Assembly (NCBI GenBank): GCA_041686735.1
Contig: JAWLDF010000005.1
Location: forward strand, 837 to 64,836
Length of the DNA: 64,000 nt
Source: Bacilli bacterium
Lineage (GTDB): Bacteria; Bacillota; Bacilli; JACDOE01
Direction: 5' to 3'
A model generated the notes under the pieces. That model was not told the origin of the DNA and ran no database searches. It saw only the letters and a program-made list of their open reading frames with translations. This document shows positions 29,895 through 57,214 of this stretch, one piece after another. Position numbers and translations under genes: made by a program. Numbering within the stretch: the first letter of the stretch is position 1; every line of letters begins with the position of its first letter.

Positions 29895-30830
29895 CTATTG
29901 TGCAAAAGCCTCTTCCGTTTTTCCTCCGTCGGCAAAGAACAACGGTTGTCCGTATTGATCCACGCCAAACTCGGCGATAACGGCCTGGGTTTCCTCAGCG
30001 AGCATAAAAGAAACAAATTTTTCTGCCGCATCCGCATTGATTTTATCAGACTTTTCCGGATTTACCTGCATCACGTGGTAAATGTTTAGTAAACTGGCTT
30101 CTCCTTCAACGAGAATTTTCAGATCAATTTCATCTTGTAGTGCAAGATAAGTGGCACGGTCTGTTAAGGTGTAGCCGCCTTTTTCTGAAGCAATGCGAAG
30201 AGTCTGCCCCATTCCCTGTCCGGACTCCTGGTACCACTGTCCCGAAGGTTCCTGTCCCGTTTGTTTCCATATGGATAACTCTTTTTTATGGGTGCCGGAA
30301 TCATCTCCGCGCGAAACAAAAATCTGTCCGGCTGATGCAATTTTTGCAAAGGCATCTGATGCCTTTTTTTCAGATTGAATACCAGCGGGATCATCCGCGG
30401 GACCAACAACAACAAAGTCATTATGCATGACCAGCTGACGGTTAATCACATCTCCGTTATCTACCAGTACTTTTTCGGAAGCTGGAGCATGAACCAGTAA
30501 AACATCCGCTTCACCCTGTTCGCCCATAGCTAGGGCTTTTCCTGTCCCGACGGCAATTGTTTTTACACGATAGCCTGTTTGTTCTTCATACATGGGAACC
30601 AGTACATCCAGCAGTCCGCTGTCCTGAGTGCTTGTGGTGGTGGCTAATATCACAAATTCTTTGGTTTCCTGATTCTGTTCATGTCCATTTTCGCTTGCTG
30701 CCGGCTCCTGGGAATCCGTATTTTCCTGACCGGCATTGTTTGCATTATTACTTCCGCAGGCACTTAATAAAGCCATAATCAATACAAAAATGATCACGGT
30801 AAGACTGTTTTTTGAAAAGAATGTTCTCAT
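29895..30830 (-). CDS. tupA: Tungstate-binding lipoprotein TupA
   Basis: Lipobox LSAC; ATTTS, GTGKAL and SRGDDSGTH signatures of TupA. Confidence 0.9.
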   Translation of the reverse strand: MRTFFSKNSLTVIIFVLIMALLSACGSNNANNAGQENTDSQEPAASENGHEQNQETKEFVILATTTSTQDSGLLDVLVPMYEEQTGYRVKTIAVGTGKALAMGEQGEADVLLVHAPASEKVLVDNGDVINRQLVMHNDFVVVGPADDPAGIQSEKKASDAFAKIASAGQIFVSRGDDSGTHKKELSIWKQTGQEPSGQWYQESGQGMGQTLRIASEKGGYTLTDRATYLALQDEIDLKILVEGEASLLNIYHVMQVNPEKSDKINADAAEKFVSFMLAEETQAVIAEFGVDQYGQPLFFADGGKTEEAFAQ

Positions 30831-47225: not shown

Positions 47226-47341
47226 TTTTTCTCACTCTTTCCTCACCTGTATAGAATAGTACGCTAATATTATGGCTTTAAAGTCATTATCTCATGAAAA
47301 AAGGACAAGTCAATTGAGATTGACCTGTCCTTTTAATCTTC

Positions 47342-47827
47342 TTAAGAAGGATTGGATTGCTCCAGATTTAAAAAATACTGTGAAATCTCAGCAACAACCG
47401 GATCTTCCGAACCCTCGCGGTGAAGTTTCAATGTCTGTTCCACGAATTCTTCCAGGCTGGAGAGCAAAGTGGTTTCATTTTCAAAACGAACATGTAACCA
47501 CTTATCACGGTCAGTCGGCTGCTCACCATACACCAGTACGATTGATTCGGGTTTCATGGTAAGCAAAACATCCCAGGAATTCATTTCCCGATCGGGCCCG
47601 ACTGCTACTATTTGCGGAAAATAGACCTCGATCGTACGCTCCCCGTGAAAAATATAGAGGATCAATGCCGTTTCATTGTCTACCAGTCCGGCCCCCCAGC
47701 GACAATCACCCTTAACGGAGGATTCCTGAATATCCTGGTCGTTTAAATCGCTATCCGGATCCCATAAGTGTAATTCTTTTTCAGATTGATCTCTTCCCAG
47801 TGCAACGGGATGTACACGATTCAGCAA
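47342..47827 (-). CDS. Hypothetical protein
   Basis: RBS GGGAGGG; 161 aa ORF filling the gap. Confidence 0.6.
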   Translation of the reverse strand: MLNRVHPVALGRDQSEKELHLWDPDSDLNDQDIQESSVKGDCRWGAGLVDNETALILYIFHGERTIEVYFPQIVAVGPDREMNSWDVLLTMKPESIVLVYGEQPTDRDKWLHVRFENETTLLSSLEEFVEQTLKLHREGSEDPVVAEISQYFLNLEQSNPS

Positions 47828-47888: not shown

Positions 47889-50800
47889 TTACTGGTCCAA
47901 TTTGTAATAATCCGGATGCGGCTTTAACGGACGCATCATCCAGTAAGGACGGCGCATTCCATGCTCCTTCGGTGCGGGACGGGTTAATTTTAACCACTCA
48001 TGGTAAACTTCATGCGCTTTTTCCGTATCCACCTGGATATCTCCATACTGGTCGTTCGCTCCGGGCAATTCCGCTTTTACTTTCTGGTGCCAGCAGTGCA
48101 TCCCGCTGATCGGATCCGGTTGAACGAGATGAATGATGTTTTGATGCACACCGGCATCTTTCCACCAGATTCTCTCGGAATCAGGGTCCTCACTCTTCCA
48201 AGGTTGCACGCCATGGACCATTTTCATTTTCCATTTTGAGCCTTCTTTCTCCAGTTTGACGACTGAGGAGTTCCAGCGGTCACTACCTTTGTCCTCATGT
48301 AATCTCCATCTTCCCAGATGGTGTGAGCAGGCGATGACTCCCGTACGGATACCGTCCGTAACCCAGACTTTATCTACAAAATATCCGCTGACGGTACTTA
48401 TTTTTAACAGATCGCCTGTTTTTACTCCCATTTTGCGGGCATCGACCGGATTCAACCAGATCGGGTTGCTGTGAGCAATCTCATACAACCACTTGGCCCC
48501 GTTCGTTCGGGAGTGAATCAGGGTCGGCAGACGGAACGTCGGCAAGAGAATGTACTCCTGGTTATCCCAGTCAATGTGGTCCGGATGAACCTGAGTGATA
48601 ATATGCGGCATCTTCGCCCGCTCTTCCTTATTACGCGGATAAATCGGAACCGCGTATTCCGGCCATCCCCAATCACGCAGGGTGGAGGAGAAGAACTCCA
48701 GCTTTCCGGAAGGCGTCGGGAATCCCTGAACGGGTTTTCCGTCAACGACCACTCCGACACGGACCTCACCGTTCTTATTTTTAAACGGTCCCGGATAAGG
48801 ACGGAGGTTGGTTTTCGGCGGCGGAGTTTTAACCCAGACACCGGGTTCTGCTTCGGAATCAGAGGAAGCGACAGTTGAAGGCTCTTCCGCAGTTGCCGCA
48901 GCTTCGGAATATCCTTTGTCTTCTGTTTTCGGAGCAACAACGGAAGCCTCTTTCAGAATCTCTTCACCAATCGGCTTCTCATGTTGCGAATAAACATCGT
49001 CCGTGATCTGGAAGGAACCGTATTTTCTCATATACTCCATCGGAGTAAGTCCTTCTTTTGCGGCAGCTTCAGGCAGACCCGGTACGGAATTTTCAAATAT
49101 CCAGCGATAATATTCTTCAATGGTTACTTTCTCGCCCGGTCGATAGGGTGATTCAAAGTATTGACGAATACCCATGGATCCATCGGGATCGATTCGCCAG
49201 GACAATTCAATCCAGAACTCATTTTCTTCCCAGACTTCACCCGGATTAGCCTCATAGGTAAACTCAATTCTCTGGCCGTCTTTCTCCTTTTGAACGCGAA
49301 GTACCGGCTGACGGAAACCGATCCACTGTGCAGCGTGGGTTTCATAACTGTGCAAATCGTGACGTTCCGGTCCGAGACCCATCGGCAGTACATAGTCCGC
49401 ATATTGGGCCGATTCGTTCCAGGTAGGTGCAAGTGCAGCATGAACGCCCACTTTTTCTTCATCCTGAAGCATTTCAATCCACGAAAATCCATCCGGGAAT
49501 GTCCACACCGGATTTAATACGCGGGTGAAATAGACATCCAGTTTCTTATTTTTATGCTTTAAAATATGGGGCAGGAGGAATCCCATTTCAAAGTTGGCCA
49601 GCGGGAATTCTCTCGGAAAATGATTTTCGTTCCAGAACTTCACATTTTGATGCGGTTCGTTAAACGGCGCCGGAACGAACTTGACCCATGAGTTGGGGAG
49701 CATACTTCCCGGGGTTCCTACCGCACCCATCAATACGTTTAAGAAAAACAGTGCCCGGGCAATCATCCAGCCGCCACGGTGCCCCGCTGAAGCATTACGC
49801 CAGACGTTGGACGAAAAAGCAGTTCCAGCCCGCGCTATCTCGTTGGCTACGTCAATGATCATCTGCGCTTTTACACCTGTCTCTTCTTCTGCAAATTCAG
49901 GTGTATACGCTTTGTACATGTCCTTCATCAGGGCAATGAAATCTTCAAAAGTATCACCTTTCGGCATTTCACTGATGAATCCCGTGTCATGGAGACTTTT
50001 GAGATATTCACGGTCGGCCAGAAGTTCATCCCAGTTGACCCATTTACGTACAAAATCAAAGTTGAACAGATCGTTCTGAATAAGATGGTTAGCCATCGCC
50101 AGTAACATGGCCGTTTCAGTTCCCGGCCAGGGTGCCATCCAGTAATCGGCTTTTGAAGCGGTATTGGAAAGGCGTGTATCAATGACAGCGATTTTGGCTC
50201 CTCTTTCCTTTGCCTCCATAATTCGTTGCGCATTGGGATTGAAATAGTGTCCCGATTCAAGATGCGCACTCATCATCAGGATAAAGCGTGCATTGCTGTA
50301 ATCCGGTGCGGGACGGTCCATTCCCATCCAGTACATGTAACCGGTACGCGCTCCGGAGGAACATACGTTGGTGTGGGAGTTATGACCGTCTACACCCCAG
50401 GCAGAAAGAACACGCTCGGTAAAGAGGTCTTCACCGGGACGGCCTACATGGTAAACGACTTCATCTTTACGATTTTCCTGGATCGCCTTGCGGATACGTG
50501 GAGCCAGATCATTCAGGGCTTCATCCCATGTGATGCGCTCCCATTCCCCGCTGCCACGGGGGCCTTTACGCTTCATCGGATATAATACACGTTCAGGGTT
50601 AGTCACCTGTCCGATGGTAGCCGGGCCTTTGGCACAGTTTCGGCCACGGCTGGCAGGGTGCAGAGGATGTCCTTCAAGTTTACGAATCTTGCCGGTTTCT
50701 TTATCGATATATGCCAGAAGTCCGCACGCTGCCTCGCAGTTAAAGCAGACGGTGGGAACCAGTCGATAGTTTTTCTTTACCTGGCGCGGCCAGGATTTCG

Positions 50801-50900
50801 AATCTAATTCTTCCCAGTCATCCCAACGATCCGGCGGCGGAAAAGAACTCAGTTTGCCAAATCGCTGAAACGGTTTGTTTGCAGTTGTACTCACAATCAT
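47889..50900 (-). CDS. DMSO-reductase-superfamily Mo/W-bisPGD oxidoreductase catalytic subunit, no Tat leader
   Basis: CFNCEAACG...CAKG 4Fe-4S motif; NSHTNVC putative Cys metal ligand; VIDTRLSNTASKAD; C-terminal cofactor-binding domain. Confidence 0.9.
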   Translation of the reverse strand: MIVSTTANKPFQRFGKLSSFPPPDRWDDWEELDSKSWPRQVKKNYRLVPTVCFNCEAACGLLAYIDKETGKIRKLEGHPLHPASRGRNCAKGPATIGQVTNPERVLYPMKRKGPRGSGEWERITWDEALNDLAPRIRKAIQENRKDEVVYHVGRPGEDLFTERVLSAWGVDGHNSHTNVCSSGARTGYMYWMGMDRPAPDYSNARFILMMSAHLESGHYFNPNAQRIMEAKERGAKIAVIDTRLSNTASKADYWMAPWPGTETAMLLAMANHLIQNDLFNFDFVRKWVNWDELLADREYLKSLHDTGFISEMPKGDTFEDFIALMKDMYKAYTPEFAEEETGVKAQMIIDVANEIARAGTAFSSNVWRNASAGHRGGWMIARALFFLNVLMGAVGTPGSMLPNSWVKFVPAPFNEPHQNVKFWNENHFPREFPLANFEMGFLLPHILKHKNKKLDVYFTRVLNPVWTFPDGFSWIEMLQDEEKVGVHAALAPTWNESAQYADYVLPMGLGPERHDLHSYETHAAQWIGFRQPVLRVQKEKDGQRIEFTYEANPGEVWEENEFWIELSWRIDPDGSMGIRQYFESPYRPGEKVTIEEYYRWIFENSVPGLPEAAAKEGLTPMEYMRKYGSFQITDDVYSQHEKPIGEEILKEASVVAPKTEDKGYSEAAATAEEPSTVASSDSEAEPGVWVKTPPPKTNLRPYPGPFKNKNGEVRVGVVVDGKPVQGFPTPSGKLEFFSSTLRDWGWPEYAVPIYPRNKEERAKMPHIITQVHPDHIDWDNQEYILLPTFRLPTLIHSRTNGAKWLYEIAHSNPIWLNPVDARKMGVKTGDLLKISTVSGYFVDKVWVTDGIRTGVIACSHHLGRWRLHEDKGSDRWNSSVVKLEKEGSKWKMKMVHGVQPWKSEDPDSERIWWKDAGVHQNIIHLVQPDPISGMHCWHQKVKAELPGANDQYGDIQVDTEKAHEVYHEWLKLTRPAPKEHGMRRPYWMMRPLKPHPDYYKLDQ

Positions 50901-50931
50901 CCCTCCATGTTTGATCTTTACGTAATCGCCA

Positions 50932-52482
50932 TTAACTTAACGGAACGGACTGACCTGCCTGCACATAAGCATGTTCATAAGCCAGCACACCGATCAATGC
51001 CAAGAGCGCTGTGATTCCGTAGATACTTGCAAATCCGAGTAACAACGGAATCAAACCACCGGCAATTAATCCCGTCCAGAAGTAACCACGGAAACGTCCT
51101 TTGATCATGTTGTGAGCAGCTTTTTCTGCATCCGCAGTCATGTGCGGTATAACCATTTCACTGAGTATCAATGCTACGTGAGCAGCTACAGAAACAATCA
51201 ATGTGATATTAACAATTTGGAGTGCATCAGCCGGCAAACTGATAAACCATGACAAAATAATAAAAGAAGCTGCACCGGTCATTACGGACTGAACAAATAA
51301 ATGTACCGGCAATACGGGATTCTGCCATAAATCACGCCCTTTGGATTGAGCGAACAGGAAAGCGGTGTAGATGGCAGTAAGAATAGCAAGTACGACTCCC
51401 GGCCACCACAATGCTTTAGCCAGTGCCTGATTGGATGTTAATCCCGCAGCAAAAAGAAGCACGAGAACCAACGTATATCCGGCGATGATAAACGCACCGC
51501 GAACCAGCCACGATTTCCATTGCGGCCGGGTAAAAATTCGATAAAATCGTTCCGGATGAGACAATTTGGAAATGAGCAACAATCCTGTTAATGCTAAAAA
51601 GAAACCGCCAATTACTGCTGTCGTTGTTGTCCAGACCGACTCCAGTTCATGTCCGAACAATCCTAAAAGAACGTAGATTAAAAACACTCCGGCAGCAATG
51701 GACTTTGTCCATGAATATAGGGAAACACGCCAGTCCCAGTATGGCTTATGTGGTACGTCGTAGGCAACACGCGCGGCGGCTATGCTGTTAAAAGAAGCTT
51801 CAACCTCTTCAACGGGATAACCTTCATTCTGTTCCGACCACATATGCATGCCTGTATACTGGGCAGCCGTAGGAGATAATGTGGCTTCGTTCGCACCCTT
51901 ATAGAAAACCTTGGGATTCGTTCCTTTTTCGGGTTTGCGAACATCTACTTTTTGTCTTGAGATAATCTGTGATACTTCACTTTCAGGGTCGTTCAGATTT
52001 CCGACAATGATCGCTTCCTCAGGACATACGACAACACATGCCGGCTCCATTCCCTGATCAATTCTGTGGGCACAGAAGTTACATTTCTCAGCGCTGTTAC
52101 TGCTCGGACTGATATGAATTGCATCATACGGACATGCGGTCATGCATGCCTTACATCCGATACAAACATCGCGATCAAAATCAACAATTCCGTCCGGACG
52201 TTTAAACATAGCCGTTACCGGGCAGACCGGTACACAGGGTGCATCTTCACACTGGTTACAACGGGTAACCTGAAAATGCCGGCTGACTTCCGGAAAAATA
52301 CCGACCTCGACCTGTTTTACATAAGTACGGTTGACGCTTAACGGCACTTCGTTTTCTGATTTACATGCCGTGGAACAGGCGTGGCAACCGATACACTTAT
52401 CCTGGTCGATGACCTTACCCCACTTGACAGAGCTACTCTGGTTGGAATCTACTAGTTCCAGTTCTTTAAGCAATGGGTCCAT
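50932..52482 (-). CDS. Fused 4x[4Fe-4S] ferredoxin (DmsB/PsrB-like) and NrfD/PsrC membrane anchor
   Basis: CIGCHACSTAC, CNQCEDAPCVPVCP, CIGCKACMTACP and CNFC...C motifs, then about 8 TM segments with KLSHPERF. Confidence 0.9.
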   Translation of the reverse strand: MDPLLKELELVDSNQSSSVKWGKVIDQDKCIGCHACSTACKSENEVPLSVNRTYVKQVEVGIFPEVSRHFQVTRCNQCEDAPCVPVCPVTAMFKRPDGIVDFDRDVCIGCKACMTACPYDAIHISPSSNSAEKCNFCAHRIDQGMEPACVVVCPEEAIIVGNLNDPESEVSQIISRQKVDVRKPEKGTNPKVFYKGANEATLSPTAAQYTGMHMWSEQNEGYPVEEVEASFNSIAAARVAYDVPHKPYWDWRVSLYSWTKSIAAGVFLIYVLLGLFGHELESVWTTTTAVIGGFFLALTGLLLISKLSHPERFYRIFTRPQWKSWLVRGAFIIAGYTLVLVLLFAAGLTSNQALAKALWWPGVVLAILTAIYTAFLFAQSKGRDLWQNPVLPVHLFVQSVMTGAASFIILSWFISLPADALQIVNITLIVSVAAHVALILSEMVIPHMTADAEKAAHNMIKGRFRGYFWTGLIAGGLIPLLLGFASIYGITALLALIGVLAYEHAYVQAGQSVPLS

Positions 52483-52581
52483 TCCTCCTTACGCCTAGTG
52501 TGTAATTATGCTATTTGTGACAACTTTATGGCAACTCTAAGGTACCATGTTTTTGACTTTTCAGTAAAATTGAAATATTAA

Positions 52582-52610
52582 ATGACCTATAACAAAGTGT
52601 TATAGGTCAT
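52582..52610. promoter_or_regulatory. 12-bp perfect inverted repeat containing a T-N11-A LysR box; candidate operator
   Basis: atgacctataac-aaagt-gttataggtcat. Confidence 0.55.
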
Positions 52611-53503
52611 GTGTGATCGCGCTGTTGCCGAAAAAAATTCAGCAGTTTGTCTACACCCTGGCGTCGAAAACGCTGTGGAGCGAGAACAATCCACAGACTT
52701 CTTTTAATTCGAAAATCTTTTATTTTTACTTCTTTCAAGAGATTGAATTCCAGTTCCCTTTTTACTGTCATCCGAGATAAAAAAGCTACACCCAGACCGG
52801 CCTCTACGGCACCTTTAATCGCCTGTGTACTGCCGATTTCCATCGCAGTCACAATACGATCAAGGATCCCCTCTTTTTGTAAAGCATTTTCTACGACCAT
52901 TCTCGTTCCCGAACCGACCTCGCGCCATATCAAACGTTCTTTTACAATCTCGTCAGGATGAATCTCGTTTCTGTCAGACCAGGGATGATGAACCGGGCAG
53001 ATCAGAACCAGTTCATCATCAGCAAACTTCTCGGCAATGAGTGATTCATCGTTGACACTTCCTTCGATCAATGCAATATCGATGGTATGTTCGGCAAGAC
53101 TGTCGAGAATTTCCCGGGTATTGGCAATGCGAATAGTCAGATTTAAATCCGTTTCCTGTTGCTTAAATTTTTCAAGTAAGCGGGGAAGCAAATATTCACC
53201 GATAGTCAATGTGGCACCGACACAAATTTGGGCCTGGTCCTTCCCTTTGTAAGTGGACAATGCCTCTTTCGCCCGTTCGTGATCTTCCAGTATCGCTTTC
53301 ATGTAGGGATATAAAATTTTTCCTGCTTCCGTAATCTGCAATTTGCCGCCGGTTCTATCAAATAATAACACATCGTAATACTCTTCCAGCGCCTGGATCT
53401 GTCGGGTCACAGCCGGTTGCGAGACAAAGAATTTGCGTGCCGCTTCACTGATACTGCCATTTTCAACGACAAGACAAAACATTTTAAAACTATCCAGATT
53501 CAC
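52607..53503 (-). CDS. LysR-family regulator (CysL-like / selenium-metabolism-associated type)
   Basis: SISEAA..VSQPAVTRQIQALE HTH; GATLTIGEYLLP and REVGSGTR motifs; GTG start at 53503. Confidence 0.88.
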   Translation of the reverse strand: MNLDSFKMFCLVVENGSISEAARKFFVSQPAVTRQIQALEEYYDVLLFDRTGGKLQITEAGKILYPYMKAILEDHERAKEALSTYKGKDQAQICVGATLTIGEYLLPRLLEKFKQQETDLNLTIRIANTREILDSLAEHTIDIALIEGSVNDESLIAEKFADDELVLICPVHHPWSDRNEIHPDEIVKERLIWREVGSGTRMVVENALQKEGILDRIVTAMEIGSTQAIKGAVEAGLGVAFLSRMTVKRELEFNLLKEVKIKDFRIKRSLWIVLAPQRFRRQGVDKLLNFFRQQRDHT

Positions 53504-53579: not shown

Positions 53580-54626
53580 TTATTTCCGTGTGCGACCGAG
53601 GTATTTCAGTGTGACAACTCCATTACCCTGGCGTCCTCTTGGTACAGATAACGTAGCAGCCGATCTTTTTAACAATCGAAACAGACCTGCGGGGGAAAGT
53701 TTTTTGTAATAAGCGAGGAATATTGCCGCGATACCTGTCAAATGGGCGGCGGCCATTGAAGTTCCGCTGAGTTTACGGTATCCTCCTCCCGGCCATGTTG
53801 ATAATATATTGACACCGGGCTCCACGAAATTAAGTCCTCTGCCACGGCTGCTGAAGGCAGGCACGCGATTGCGGATATCGATGGCACCCACCGCAATCAC
53901 GCCGCTATATCGTGCCGGGTAATCCACACTGCCTCCGCTGTTTCCGGAAGCGGCGATCATTACAATTCCCGCATCCCTAGCAGCATTGATTGCGTTCCTT
54001 TCAGCACGGCTTCCCTGACCGGAACCAAAACTCATATTCAGGATATCCATGCTGTTTTCTATCGCCCATTCAATTCCTTCGATGACATCGGCGGAACTCC
54101 CTGTTCCATCCGCACCAAAAGCTTTAATCGCATACAACGATGCCCCGGGTGCAATTCCGGTAATTCCGGAACCATTAAGGGCGGCGGCGATTGTACCTGC
54201 AATGTGGGTACCGTGCCCGTTTCGATCAATAAATGGACTGCCAGAACCCATCACATTGACTCCTCCAGTCACCCTTCCCCTCAAATCAGGGTGGCTGCGG
54301 TCAATTCCGGTATCAATAATCCCGATTCGCACACCACTTCCCTGCACCCTCCTCCATACTCCGAGAGCACCCACTTTTCGAACGCCCCAAGGGATTGTTT
54401 CGCTGTGAAGTTTATAAACTTTATCGTCTTCGACGGTAATCTGTTTTTTTGAAAGTTGAGTCACCTGATTCTGGATACGGGAAAAATCTTTGCTGTCCAT
54501 GCATACCGTTTTTGTTCGCGGGAAATAACGGCATCGTTTTTTTATGGACCGAGGCAGACGTTGCCAGAATTCCTTCAATTCCTGGTCATGATCAAAAGAA
54601 ATCAACTTTCTCACGGACGTCACCAT
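53580..54626 (-). CDS. Subtilisin-like S8 serine peptidase, no evident signal peptide
   Basis: IIDTGID, GHGTHIAG and SGTSMAA catalytic triad motifs. Confidence 0.9.
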   Translation of the reverse strand: MVTSVRKLISFDHDQELKEFWQRLPRSIKKRCRYFPRTKTVCMDSKDFSRIQNQVTQLSKKQITVEDDKVYKLHSETIPWGVRKVGALGVWRRVQGSGVRIGIIDTGIDRSHPDLRGRVTGGVNVMGSGSPFIDRNGHGTHIAGTIAAALNGSGITGIAPGASLYAIKAFGADGTGSSADVIEGIEWAIENSMDILNMSFGSGQGSRAERNAINAARDAGIVMIAASGNSGGSVDYPARYSGVIAVGAIDIRNRVPAFSSRGRGLNFVEPGVNILSTWPGGGYRKLSGTSMAAAHLTGIAAIFLAYYKKLSPAGLFRLLKRSAATLSVPRGRQGNGVVTLKYLGRTRK

Positions 54627-54719
54627 CCCTCGTTTTCTGCTTCATTTTATGAAGCAGTCCGGGGGATAGCGCGCCCAAAAATCATGACTTTAATCATATC
54701 GACTACAGTTCGGTACAAT

Positions 54720-56843
54720 CTATTCCGATTTAATGCGAAGCAATCGAATGCCGTTGACCGTCACAAGAATGGTGGCACCCATGTCTGCCAGAATGGCAAG
54801 CCATAACGTAAGCCATCCCGGAAAAACGGCAAGTACAGCCAGAATTTTAACAGCCAGAGAAAAAGTAATATTCTGTTTGATCACGCGCAGGGTGGCGCGA
54901 CTTAATTTTAGCGCATAGGGGATCTTTGTCAGATCGTCTCCCATGATGACGACATCCGCAGTCTCCATTGCCGTATCTGTTCCCGCTCCCCCCATGGCTA
55001 TTCCTACACTGGAGACAGCCAGCGCCGGAGCATCGTTAATGCCATCTCCGACCATGGCCGTTGTTCCATAACGATTGTTCAACTCATGGACCCGTTGCAA
55101 TTTGTCTTGAGGCATCAACTCGGAATATACTTCATCAATTCCCGATCCCTGCGCAATCGCGTCCGCTGTACGGTGATTATCTCCCGTAAGCATAACCACT
55201 TTTTTCACAGAGAGGGATTTTAATTTATGAATCACAGAAGTCGCCTGTGGGCGAATTGAATCTGCTATGCTGATCCAGCCCATGACCTCCAGCTTTCCGG
55301 CAAGGCCGATTACCGTTTTCCCTTCATTTTGCCATTGTTTTATTCTTTGCTCCTGTTCCGGGGGGATTTGTATTTCTTTTCGGATCATTTCCGGGCTCCC
55401 GACCAGATATAATTCTCCATTGATTCGGCCCCTGACCCCCTGACCCGTGATGGACTCGAATTGTTCCGCTTCCGGTGCTTCAACATCATCATGCCGTGCC
55501 CTGTTGACGATTGCCCGTGCCAGGGGATGTTCCGATTTGGACTCCAGGGCTGCGACCAGTGCCAAAATTTTTTTGCGGCTCTGTTCATCTTCCGGCTGTT
55601 GCAGCGGGAGGATATCAATCACCCTCGGTTCCCCGGACGTTAAAGTGCCCGTTTTGTCAAAAGCAATCACCTTTGCTTTCCCCAACTCTTCGAGGTAAAT
55701 TCCCCCTTTTACCAGCACACCCTGCCTCGCTGCCGAACCAATCGCACTGACAATGGCGACCGGTGTAGATACTACCAGCGCACACGGGCAGGCAACAACA
55801 AGTAATGCAAGACCGCGGTAAATCCAGTCATGCCATCCCCCTCCGAAAAAGAGGGGTGGAATCAAAATAATGGAAAGAGCGAGTACCATGACAACCGGCG
55901 TATAATATTTTGCAAAACGGTCGACGAATGCCTGGGACGGAGCCCTTTCCGACTGGGCCTCTTCAACTAAATGAATGATTTTGGTTAACGTGTTATCCTC
56001 AACTGTTCTGGTCACTTTAATTTTTAAAAAGCCGTACTGGTTGAGTGTCCCTGCAAAGACTTCATCATTCTTTTGTTTCTCAACGGGAATGGACTCCCCG
56101 GTAATGGCCGCCTGGTTAACCGAAGATTCTCCTTCAATCACCACACCATCCATGGCAATTTTTTCACCCGGCTTTACCAGCATCGTATCTCCCGCTTCAA
56201 TTTCTTCTACCGCAAGTTCCAGTTCCCGTCCCTCACGGATGATCACCGCTTTTTTGGGGGAGATCTTCATCAAAGAGCGGATGGCATTTCGCGCTTTATC
56301 CATCGAATAATTTTCCAGCAACTCACTGACGGCAAACAAGAAAGAGATGACGGCTGCTTCGCTCCATTCTCCGATCAGGACGGCTCCGCTCACAGCAACC
56401 AACATCAGCGTATTCATATCAAAATTAAAACGGAGTAGCCCCCTCCACCCTTTTTTTGCAGTAGCGTAGCCCCCGATCGCAATGGTCAGAGCATATAATC
56501 CATAGACGAAAAGCGGAGGGCTTTGTAAAAACGATGTCATCCAGGCAAGGATGAGGAAAATTCCCGATATTCCCGCCCGCCTTGCATCCCGGCTCTTCCA
56601 GACAGACTCCGTCTCCCCAACCTGCATCCCCTGCGGAATCGCCCGAATCCCGTCAAAGGCACCGGTACGATTAATCTGTTCCAGAGAAACGTCACCCTCG
56701 ATTTGCAATTTGCCTGCACCAAAATTAAGTTTCACATTACGCACGCCGGGTAATTTTTTTAAATCCCGCTCAAACTGAGCGGCACAATCCGCTCAGGTAA
56801 GTCCCTGCAAATGATATTGCTTATTCTCATGAGATGTACTCAT
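54720..56843 (-). CDS. cadA: P1B-2 Cd/Zn/Pb-exporting ATPase with an in-frame TGA at codon 17 (probable selenocysteine in a UxxC HMA motif); 707 aa if read through
   Basis: MSTSHENKQYHLQGLT*ADCAAQFERDLKKLPGV is in frame with the 674-aa ORF; ATG overlaps the cadC stop (ATGA) with RBS GGGAGGGG; CPC, DKTGT, SEHP and ADMG motifs. Confidence 0.88.
56766..56795 (-). promoter_or_regulatory. Candidate bacterial SECIS element immediately 3' of the in-frame TGA
   Basis: TGA-gcggattgtg-CCGCTCA-GTT-TGAGCGG; 7-bp stem, loop starting GU, 17 nt from the UGA to the loop. Confidence 0.65.
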
Positions 56844-57214
56844 TTGCTTTTCCCCTCCCGATGATGCATCAATGCAAGCTCAATAATGTCTGTTACGTGC
56901 TGATCGTCCAGGGAATAAAACACCAGTTTTCCCCTTTTTTCATATCTGGCAAGCCCCATATTGTACAGCAAACGAAGGTGATGGGAGGCTGTTGCGGTAG
57001 AGCATCCGACAATATTGGCTGCATCACAAACGCACAACTCCTTTTCCCTCGTCAGCGCGTAAGCAATCCGCACCCGGGTATCGTCAGCGAGGGCTTTAAA
57101 TAACCCGGAAAGTCCTTCCGTCACTTCTACTTCTTTTCGCAATTTCTCCACAATTTCTTCGTTATAGCAATAGATTTCACACTGGTGGGGATCCGAACCT
57201 CTATTCTGTGACAT
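56840..57214 (-). CDS. cadC: CadC-type ArsR/SmtB repressor
   Basis: CEIYC and ELCVCD metal sites; FKALADDTR and ASHHLR motifs. Confidence 0.9.
   Translation of the reverse strand: MSQNRGSDPHQCEIYCYNEEIVEKLRKEVEVTEGLSGLFKALADDTRVRIAYALTREKELCVCDAANIVGCSTATASHHLRLLYNMGLARYEKRGKLVFYSLDDQHVTDIIELALMHHREGKSK

Follow-up and report, generated by a model that had tools for sequence, protein, structure and literature searches.

A PSRLC3-family molybdoenzyme operon in a Bacilli bacterium as a candidate sulfite-inducible, cytoplasm-facing sulfite:quinone oxidoreductase

The pairing of a catalytic Mo/W-bisPGD subunit (A) with an iron-sulfur and membrane-anchor partner (BC) is textbook biochemistry. PsrABC and PhsABC (structure 2VPW) are Tat-exported, periplasmic and quinol-oxidising, with separate B and C subunits. 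SoeABC of Allochromatium vinosum and Aquifex aeolicus comprises a Tat-less, Cys-ligated Mo-bisPGD subunit, a four-cluster FeS protein and an 8-TM NrfD-type anchor facing the cytoplasm; its gene order is A-B-C, with B and C separate. In the PSRLC3 (cytoplasmic psrBC-psrA) family, as described in PMC3906813 and PMC5473276, B and C are fused, BC is encoded before A and there is no Tat leader. Hosts given in PMC3906813 are green sulfur bacteria (GSB), Marine Group A, MGII archaea, Chloroflexi and haloarchaea. The GSB complex goes back to Frigaard and Bryant 2008 and Gregersen 2011, cited here via PMC3906813, PMC5473276 and PMC9324843, and the PSRLC3 name was applied through such secondary citations listing Chlorobium luteolum. 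In the literature the GSB complex is proposed to oxidise Dsr-made sulfite; no biochemical characterisation, assay, mutant or expression data were found in the literature for any PSRLC3 member.

The locus described here lies in a stretch of 64,000 nucleotides from a Bacilli bacterium (the window) and comprises the following features.

52607..53503, minus strand: lysR, CysL/YeiE-type regulator, GTG start
52582..52610, minus strand: candidate operator palindrome, core ATAAC-N5-GTTAT at 52589-52603 with a T-N11-A LysR box
52505..52547, minus strand: candidate sigma-A promoter elements, consensus matches alone
50932..52482, minus strand: PsrBC-type FeS-NrfD fusion, 516 aa, 4x[4Fe-4S] plus 8-TM NrfD/PsrC
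47889..50900, minus strand: catalytic Mo/W-bisPGD subunit A, 1003 aa, PSRLC3 family, Tat-less
47342..47827, minus strand: orf161, 161 aa, final operon gene, matching no known family
47299..47334, minus strand: terminator-like hairpin and T-run at the operon end, 16-bp arms, 94% complementary

The ORF finder carried lysR on to 53548, against 53503 with the GTG start. The genes named in the original prediction were all recovered (LysR, the fused 4x[4Fe-4S] and NrfD protein, and a 1003-residue A subunit with no twin-arginine motif and a putative Cys ligand in SHTNVC), and the two-subunit composition that it proposed is borne out by the fused BC and A. The conserved fourth gene, the palindrome and the hairpin are additions to it. 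Every gene of the locus is under purifying selection (dN/dS 0.025-0.095), which rules out a pseudogene reading.

By sequence the pair belongs to the PSRLC3 family, and the locus is an already-described arrangement, not a new architecture. The family is large (more than 8000 homologues) and mis-annotated. Full-length identity is 54% between A and C. luteolum ABB22919, which is encoded upstream of dsrAB, and 42% between BC and ABB22918. In an A-subunit tree with Psr, Arr, Ttr and Soe references and no Fdh row, A and ABB22919 fell in one 100/100 clade, apart from SoeA, Phs, Arr and Ttr. The sister clade is Tat-bearing and uncharacterised, and one of its members lies in an arsenic island. An Azoarcus protein of this sister clade may resemble the antimonate reductase AnrA. 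A full-length BC fusion was present in 69 of 80 loci, and BC is encoded before A here, as in PSRLC3. The arrangement was at first held to be unusual and unassignable, a view that gives way to membership of a named family. Tight clustering with a characterised enzyme of the same architecture had been named beforehand as grounds for refutation; the clustering was found, with a described family, and the characterisation was not.

The C. luteolum locus and the present one have in common two genes, a fused BC, the BC-before-A order, the lack of Tat, and the FS0 and HNSHTNVCS motifs. They differ in that this host is a member of the Bacillota with no dsr genes found, that a CysL/YeiE-type lysR and candidate operator precede the pair, that orf161 lies downstream where GSB have tauE/tusA/dsrE, that the quinone site carries Asp306Lys, and that A is approximately 50 residues longer.

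The FS0 motif of A is formed by Cys52/55/59/89. Cys180, within HNSHTNVCS, is the predicted metal ligand and pairs in alignment with the Cys that occupies the Mo-ligand position in PsrA (2VPW), ArrA (6CZ7), PhsA, TtrA-like proteins and SoeA; modA and a TupA-like gene in the host genome bear on the choice between Mo and W. The closest PDB sequence match of A was 2VPW (PsrA; E 8e-39). AlphaFold gave a model of moderate quality (pLDDT 67), with low confidence around the active site; a fold search using it confirmed no more than the superfamily. Membership of the PsrA/PhsA, ArrA and TtrA families was ruled out by HMM scores below cut-off (bits/cut-off: PhsA 195/694, ArrA 117/1600, TtrA 105/1750), the lack of Tat and separate branches. 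No RR motif was found on A. In-frame stops precede both start codons, at a distance of 13 codons for A and immediately for BC; no Tat leader could therefore be gained from an alternative start, and the Tat-less assignment stood when alternative starts were checked. A loose RR pattern occurred in only 2 of 120 A homologues, both as RRF within longer N-termini unlike signal peptides.

The BC fusion contains 16 Cys in four ferredoxin motifs, followed without an intervening stop by an NrfD domain of eight helices. The N-terminal 4x[4Fe-4S] domain spans residues ~20-195 (closest PDB sequence match 2VPW, E 7e-50; the FeS half of the structure model was unreliable) and the 8-TM NrfD/PsrC quinone-reactive anchor residues ~248-511. 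Across 86 fusions the positive-inside bias assigned both the FeS domain and the loop at the quinone site to the inner side of the membrane. The predicted topology is N-in/C-in and cytoplasm-facing, in support of the cytoplasm-facing, quinone-linked complex originally proposed.

The regulator consists of HTH_1 and LysR_substrate Pfam domains, and its top PDB matches were 8SBF and YeiE (8SBH/7ERP). Its pocket residues T98, L99, N128, T129, E147, R194, S198 and T200 correspond to S96, S97, N126, S127, E145, R191, S195 and T197 of YeiE; five of the eight are identical and two conservative, and the Glu that governs selectivity for sulfite against sulfate is kept, as is the Arg. These residues support the CysL-like assignment made at the outset. 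The score against the YeiE equivalog HMM (205) was below its cut-off (480), and no CysL model was among the LysR HMM matches listed. Whereas CysL of Bacillus subtilis and YeiE usually target the cysJI sulfite reductase, cysJI was not found in this genome, and lysR here precedes the molybdoenzyme operon instead. Among 8 close relatives, 7 have lysR immediately before the fusion gene. The protein is probably a sulfite sensor that activates the operon.

The palindrome is perfect, and its core is unique in the genome. A compensatory change was present in the relative locus L001; the core was intact in L288, L001, L291, L292 and L294 and had a single mismatch in L289. A LysR-type box upstream of the operon is conserved in Bacillota. 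Conservation thus points to a probable operator. The palindrome scores as terminator-like in this window and may double as the lysR terminator at this locus; its reading as a terminator alone is made less likely by L291, where it lies ~170 bp from the lysR stop and separate from lysR's own terminator hairpin. Two candidate promoters were noted: an extended -10 at 52547-52539, with the operator centre near -64, or a -35/-10 pair at 52534-52505. For orf161 no Pfam or NCBIfam match was found, and an atlas search returned nothing usable (all matches below 0.8). It follows A immediately in 6 of 8 close relatives, and an Mrp/ApbC FeS carrier gene often comes next. Its dN/dS of 0.095 indicates purifying selection; our guess is a maturation or accessory factor.

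We favour the reading, at a probability of roughly 0.65, that the complex is a sulfite-inducible, cytoplasm-facing sulfite:quinone oxidoreductase of the PSRLC3 family. A sulfite-sensor-like LysR adjoining the operon suggests oxidation of toxic sulfite to sulfate inside the cell; both the substrate and the direction of the reaction are what we infer. Cytoplasmic sulfite would come from APS reduction and from persulfide dioxygenases, whose substrate would be sulfane sulfur made by SQR. As the pocket and box conservation imply, it would bind the LysR protein, which would then activate BC-A-orf161 from the palindromic box. At the Cys180-ligated Mo (or W) centre sulfite would be oxidised to sulfate with oxygen from water, by analogy with SoeABC, and two electrons would pass from FS0 through the four [4Fe-4S] clusters of BC to membrane quinone at the NrfD domain, a path that follows from the PsrABC structure, in which the same three modules occur. 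The quinone expected in Bacilli is menaquinone, and the role would be sulfite detoxification with electron recovery.

SoeABC, which matches the present complex in the features given above (with the cytoplasmic orientation predicted here), is the most likely functional analogue of PSRLC3. Orthology with SoeA was rejected: identity is ~24%, the active-site motifs differ from the FS0 CYMCACRC and ligand AHGGFCS of SoeA, and the clades are separate (AU p=0.012, which is moderate evidence because of the LG+G4 model, long branches and a grouping named after the first tree was seen). In addition, the quinone site is His in Soe and Asp/Lys in PSRLC3, and BC is fused and encoded before A. The SoeA and bacterial SreA references were metagenome proteins found by motif, two of them named SoeA by JGI, and searching the phylum of genome G065 with a SoeA pattern gave no match. 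Since A is not a SoeA orthologue, function is not transferable by descent; PSRLC3 would have reached the SoeABC solution independently.

Sulfite oxidation is also suggested by genomic context. Among 39 dsrA-positive GSB, 24 carried the PSRLC3 family only, 10 aprA only, one both and four neither (counts that are not independent, the genomes being kin, and with genome completeness not stated); the family and aprA almost exclude each other. Among aprA-negative GSB the family tracks dsrA, being present in 24 of 28 with dsrA and in four of 20 without a dsrA match. Of 14 GSB loci, 6 have it a few genes ahead of dsrN-C-A-B, a linkage characteristic of GSB members and not of the family at large. In 80 genomes the neighbours, as raw counts without background control, included MBL-rhodanese persulfide dioxygenase-like (23), SulP (14), SQR-like (6) and YeeE (6) genes; at least one was present in 31 loci, mostly of Bacteroidota and Acidobacteriota. 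TauE, TusA, DsrE or SoxB-like genes adjoin the family in Kyrpidia, Hydrogenibacillus, Rhodococcus and Natrinema. The host genome (100% complete) has genes that produce sulfite. It encodes DsrE2/TusA, cysH-tauE-sat, three SQR-like genes and three resembling MBL sulfur dioxygenases; searches of it for siroheme sulfite reductase, aprA and dsrA found none, and dsrA was likewise without a match at the other non-GSB loci inspected. Against sulfite oxidation stand the lack of SoeA orthology, the uncharacterised sister clade with its member in an arsenic island, the 49 of 80 loci with none of these neighbours, the four GSB that carry the family without a dsrA match, and the window itself, in which no sulfur gene apart from lysR was found. 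A sulfite-oxidase-fold gene and two TauE genes of the host could handle sulfite instead.

An unlikely but substantial alternative is that the complex acts on other cytoplasmic sulfur species, by quinol-driven reduction of polysulfide, sulfane sulfur, thiosulfate or tetrathionate, or by oxidation of TusA/DsrE-carried sulfur. PsrA and ArrA are the top PDB matches of A by sequence and by fold, TusA, DsrE and rhodanese genes are among the neighbours, and a Sulfurovum homologue falls in the same clade as A; Tat-less Psr-like enzymes of Sulfurovum, not necessarily of the PSRLC3 clade, are proposed sulfur reducers in PMC10045233. However, the LysR has a sulfite pocket, and it is sulfite oxidation, not sulfur reduction, that would lead one to expect the near-exclusion of aprA. 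Sulfur-oxidising phototrophs and members of largely aerobic groups are numerous among the hosts. Tolerance of Asp306Lys also fits a quinone-reducing enzyme, since QrcD D120A retains approximately two thirds of its activity and the equivalent Asp site is essential in the quinol-oxidising PsrC and DmsC.

The sulfur or selenium oxyanion originally suggested keeps its sulfur half, through the regulator pocket and the genomic evidence; selenium is left as part of a weak rival. Under this improbable reading the complex would detoxify a metalloid oxyanion (selenite, selenate, arsenic or antimony) and the LysR would sense selenite. It would accord with the top NCBIfam match of the LysR (LysR_Sec_metab, 233 bits against a cut-off of 250), a host selD with an in-frame TGA, the arsenic-island member of the sister clade and a cadmium-type ATPase gene 1.2 kb upstream of lysR. 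The ATPase link is nevertheless confined to the nearest relatives, the metal ligand is Cys and not Sec, no selenium or arsenic gene family recurs among the neighbours of the 80 loci, and the dsr linkage and aprA exclusion are left unexplained.

Decay of the complex, or its uncoupling from the quinone pool, in this lineage is very improbable. Residue 306 is Asp in 84 of 86 fusions and Lys in this lineage only, at the site essential in PsrC and DmsC. Against decay, three genomes that are 86-97% alike all carry the Lys, BC has a dN/dS of 0.029, Ser324 and the remaining invariant anchor residues are intact, and QrcD tolerates loss of this Asp. A formate:quinone oxidoreductase is hardly credible, although several homologues are auto-named formate dehydrogenase, weak Fdh HMM matches occur and the 'Fqo' label of PMC8076601 possibly points the same way (its FqoC2, of a Chloroflexi branch, may overlap the PSRLC3 family): formate dehydrogenase identity was rejected on motif, as Ser181 follows Cys180 where formate dehydrogenases have His after the Cys/Sec ligand (Cys-His in 9VAP), scores are far under every Fdh cut-off, A lies in the Psr/Arr/Ttr/Soe branch of the tree without an Fdh row, and the family has a sulfur context.

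Sulfite oxidation by this complex would address the question of how cytoplasmic sulfite is disposed of in most GSB and in SQR/persulfide-dioxygenase heterotrophs. In surveys based on SoeABC, SorAB and Apr, direct sulfite oxidisers can come out as rare, and the PSRLC3 family is not among the enzymes named in the available portion of one such survey (PMC12345210). We put forward tentatively, at somewhat short of even odds for the whole, that PSRLC3 may be a second class of cytoplasmic sulfite:quinone oxidoreductase with an evolutionary origin of its own, spread over Bacteroidota, Chloroflexota, Acidobacteriota, Actinomycetota, Bacillota and haloarchaea and hidden as 'formate dehydrogenase', with a CysL-type sensor rewired in Bacillota from sulfite reduction to oxidation and Lys at the quinone site in this lineage. 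The locus makes the PSRLC3 proposal easier to test, as it comes with sulfite as the predicted inducer, a predicted operator sequence and carriers that can be cultured (Kyrpidia, Alicyclobacillus and Rhodococcus jostii RHA1). If true, PSRLC3 would supply the final step so far missing both from the SQR-persulfide dioxygenase pathway and from Apr-less Dsr sulfur oxidation.

The order of LysR regulator, FeS-NrfD fusion and Mo/W-bisPGD A subunit was found as in the original prediction, with all three genes on the minus strand. A fourth gene (orf161) and a palindrome, both overlooked at that stage, were added.

Features of the operon
52607-53503, minus strand: LysR regulator
52582-52610: perfect palindrome, core ATAAC-N5-GTTAT, between lysR and the fusion gene
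50932-52482, minus strand: FeS-NrfD fusion, 516 aa, four ferredoxin motifs continuing into an NrfD domain
47889-50900, minus strand: Mo/W-bisPGD A subunit, 1003 aa
47342-47827, minus strand: orf161, 161 aa, directly after A
47299-47334: terminator-like hairpin at the end of orf161

The operon is real and intact. Relative to a single 97%-identical relative, dN/dS was 0.025 for A, 0.029 for the fusion (BC), 0.046 for LysR and 0.095 for orf161, and these low values indicate that the genes are maintained. No twin-arginine leader was present in A or the fusion when both gene starts were inspected, and in-frame stops shortly upstream rule out a longer start for either; the A subunit is thus Tat-less, as proposed. 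No NCBIfam model matched A at cut-off (top score PhsA, 195 vs 694 required). By alignment, Cys180 of the SHTNVC motif, the putative ligand, occupies the metal-ligand position of PsrA, ArrA, PhsA, TtrA-like and SoeA references. The metal may be Mo or W, with modA and a TupA-like gene both present in the host genome; the latter, a TupA-like tungstate-binding protein (window 29991-30674, minus strand), scored 222 bits over a partial stretch against a cut-off of 400. Upstream of lysR lie a probable ArsR-type regulator, a cadmium-type P-type ATPase and a subtilase (53580-57214, minus strand), a linkage confined to the nearest relatives.

The architecture, earlier considered unusual and unassignable, is already published, and by sequence the operon is a further member of the named PSRLC3 family (cytoplasmic psrBC-psrA). 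PMC3906813 describes a psrBC fusion, BC ahead of A and no Tat signal in Chlorobium luteolum, other green sulfur bacteria (GSB), Marine Group A, MGII archaea, Caldilinea and Haladaptatus; the role it proposes is oxidation of Dsr-made sulfite. PMC5473276 refers to "2 genes encoding PSRLC3", and PMC9324843 terms PSRLC3 an inferred sulfite oxidase. The window A and fusion proteins were 54% and 42% identical to C. luteolum ABB22919 and its partner ABB22918, respectively. In GSB, BC-A usually has a TauE-like gene after it, and often tusA or dsrE2; dsrN-C-A-B lies downstream in 6 of 14 GSB loci.

A maximum-likelihood tree of 36 proteins placed window A and the GSB proteins in one clade (support 100/100), with SoeA, PhsA, ArrA-like and TtrA-like proteins outside it. 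The enzyme therefore clusters tightly with a named family, albeit one for which no biochemical study was found in the literature searched (two primary papers being known via citing papers). The sister clade (97/96) comprises mostly Tat-bearing uncharacterised proteins, and Tat leaders also occur in a small number of divergent proteins within the wider clade. One sister-clade enzyme, encoded on an Azoarcus KH32C plasmid (L089:6296-14187), is a Tat-bearing B-C-A molybdoenzyme within an arsenic island, 30% identical to window A, with an unusual FS0 motif in which Asp replaces the third Cys. A tree constrained to group the family with SoeA was rejected (p-AU 0.012, with long branches and model as caveats). 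SoeA references also differ in gene order, motifs and their separate B and C subunits, so the inward-facing layout probably evolved separately from SoeABC.

The structural model of the fusion contained eight long helices C-terminal to the FeS domain. Across 86 fusions, mean Lys/Arg counts were 1.2, 3.6, 1.9 and 3.6 in alternate loops on the FeS side and 0.2, 0.5, 0.2 and 0.0 in the opposite loops. An N-in/C-in topology is predicted, with the FeS domain and quinone-site loop cytoplasmic; together with the lack of Tat, this loop bias favours the cytoplasm-facing complex originally proposed. Ser324 was invariant. Position 306 was Asp in 84 of 86 fusions and Lys in the host and its two nearest relatives. 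By motif it matches the helix-2 position that PsrC and DmsC, which oxidise quinol, cannot do without, but that the quinone reducer QrcD can lose; by this analogy, tolerance of Lys306 leans weakly towards quinone reduction.

In 6 of 8 close relatives the fourth gene, orf161, was likewise next after A, and an Mrp/ApbC FeS carrier gene often came after it; orf161 gave no family match in Pfam, NCBIfam or atlas searches. The palindrome core occurs once in the host genome. Five relatives also have it in front of the fusion gene, one of them with a compensatory change in the arms. The window palindrome also scores as terminator-like. Because the core recurs, and in one relative (L291) is separate from the lysR terminator, it is most likely an operator.

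Four lines of evidence point to sulfite as substrate. The LysR retains the sulfite pocket of YeiE together with its sulfate-excluding Glu, which is present in 10/10 linked Bacillota LysRs and is Gly in the nearest host paralogue; the regulator, earlier called CysL-like, is thus predicted to bind sulfite. Among 39 dsrA-positive GSB, 24 had only the family, 10 only aprA, one both and four neither, a near exclusion expected if alternative routes serve one step (nominal p = 1.5e-5, overstated since kin are non-independent and genome completeness was not given). Persulfide dioxygenase-like, SulP, SQR-like or YeeE neighbours occurred in 31/80 loci, mostly of Bacteroidota and Acidobacteriota (a raw count with no background rate). 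The host genome encodes three SQR-like and three MBL sulfur dioxygenase-like proteins, DsrE2/TusA clusters and cysH-tauE-sat. Siroheme sulfite reductase, aprA and dsrA were not found in it, which leaves the regulator without the target usual for CysL. On the other side, the genome has one gene of the sulfite-oxidase fold and two for TauE that could also deal with sulfite.

Host contig G000:C27 (L280:5074-7922) carries the clustered cysH (APS reductase), tauE and sat; a search for siroheme sulfite reductase domains found none despite this cluster, in a genome rated 100% complete. Contig G000:C26 (L279:2499-9636) carries tandem duplicated tusA-dsrE2-MBL/rhodanese sulfur-handling cassettes with a possible CsoR/CstR-like repressor, read from sequence with no family match. 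On G000:C30 (L287:2348-4473), a type III SQR exceeding the cut-off of a "selenoprotein subtype" model is followed by tusE/dsrC-like and dsrE2-like genes.

In the proposed scheme, to which we assign a probability of about 65%, sulfite would activate LysR, which would switch on the operon; the Cys-ligated metal centre would oxidise sulfite to sulfate, and electrons would pass through five FeS clusters to membrane quinone. The foremost alternative, at perhaps one chance in five, is that the enzyme acts on carrier-bound sulfur, polysulfide or thiosulfate. Selenium or metalloid oxyanions, for which the presence of selD in the host speaks, are improbable substrates; that selD (G000:C7:10952-11884) has an in-frame TGA and probably encodes a selenocysteine-containing SelD. 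An uncoupled variant is very improbable, and formate as substrate slightly more so.

The family is very common, with at least 8000 homologues (8000/8000 scored candidates passed), the best 120 of which were 58-97% identical. The 80 genome loci cover Bacillota, Chloroflexota, Acidobacteriota, Bacteroidota, Binatota, Gemmatimonadota and others, with a full-length BC fusion in 69; copies were plasmid-borne in Thermomicrobium, Rhodococcus jostii RHA1 and haloarchaea. Near the host it is patchy (4/61 related genomes), the closest named record being a Bacillaceae MAG (86%). A full orthologue was found in 40/251 Bacteroidota genomes, 29 of the 40 being FMO-bearing GSB. In Alicyclobacillus mengziensis (L295:4303-5589) an IS110 element sits between BC and A. 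Sulfurovum mangrovi (L088:10001-13133) has a divergent member with an unfused NrfD gene plus a TorD gene, its A gene being frameshifted in that record. Another member (L061) lies in a Gemmatimonadota MAG labelled BHB10, linked by label only to the Bohai Sea station of that name, where PMC12345210 reports SoeABC as scarce.

What the study of this locus contributes is the PSRLC3 assignment, the predicted link between a sulfite sensor and an operator, the near exclusion between the family and aprA, the additional gene orf161 and the variant with Lys at position 306.
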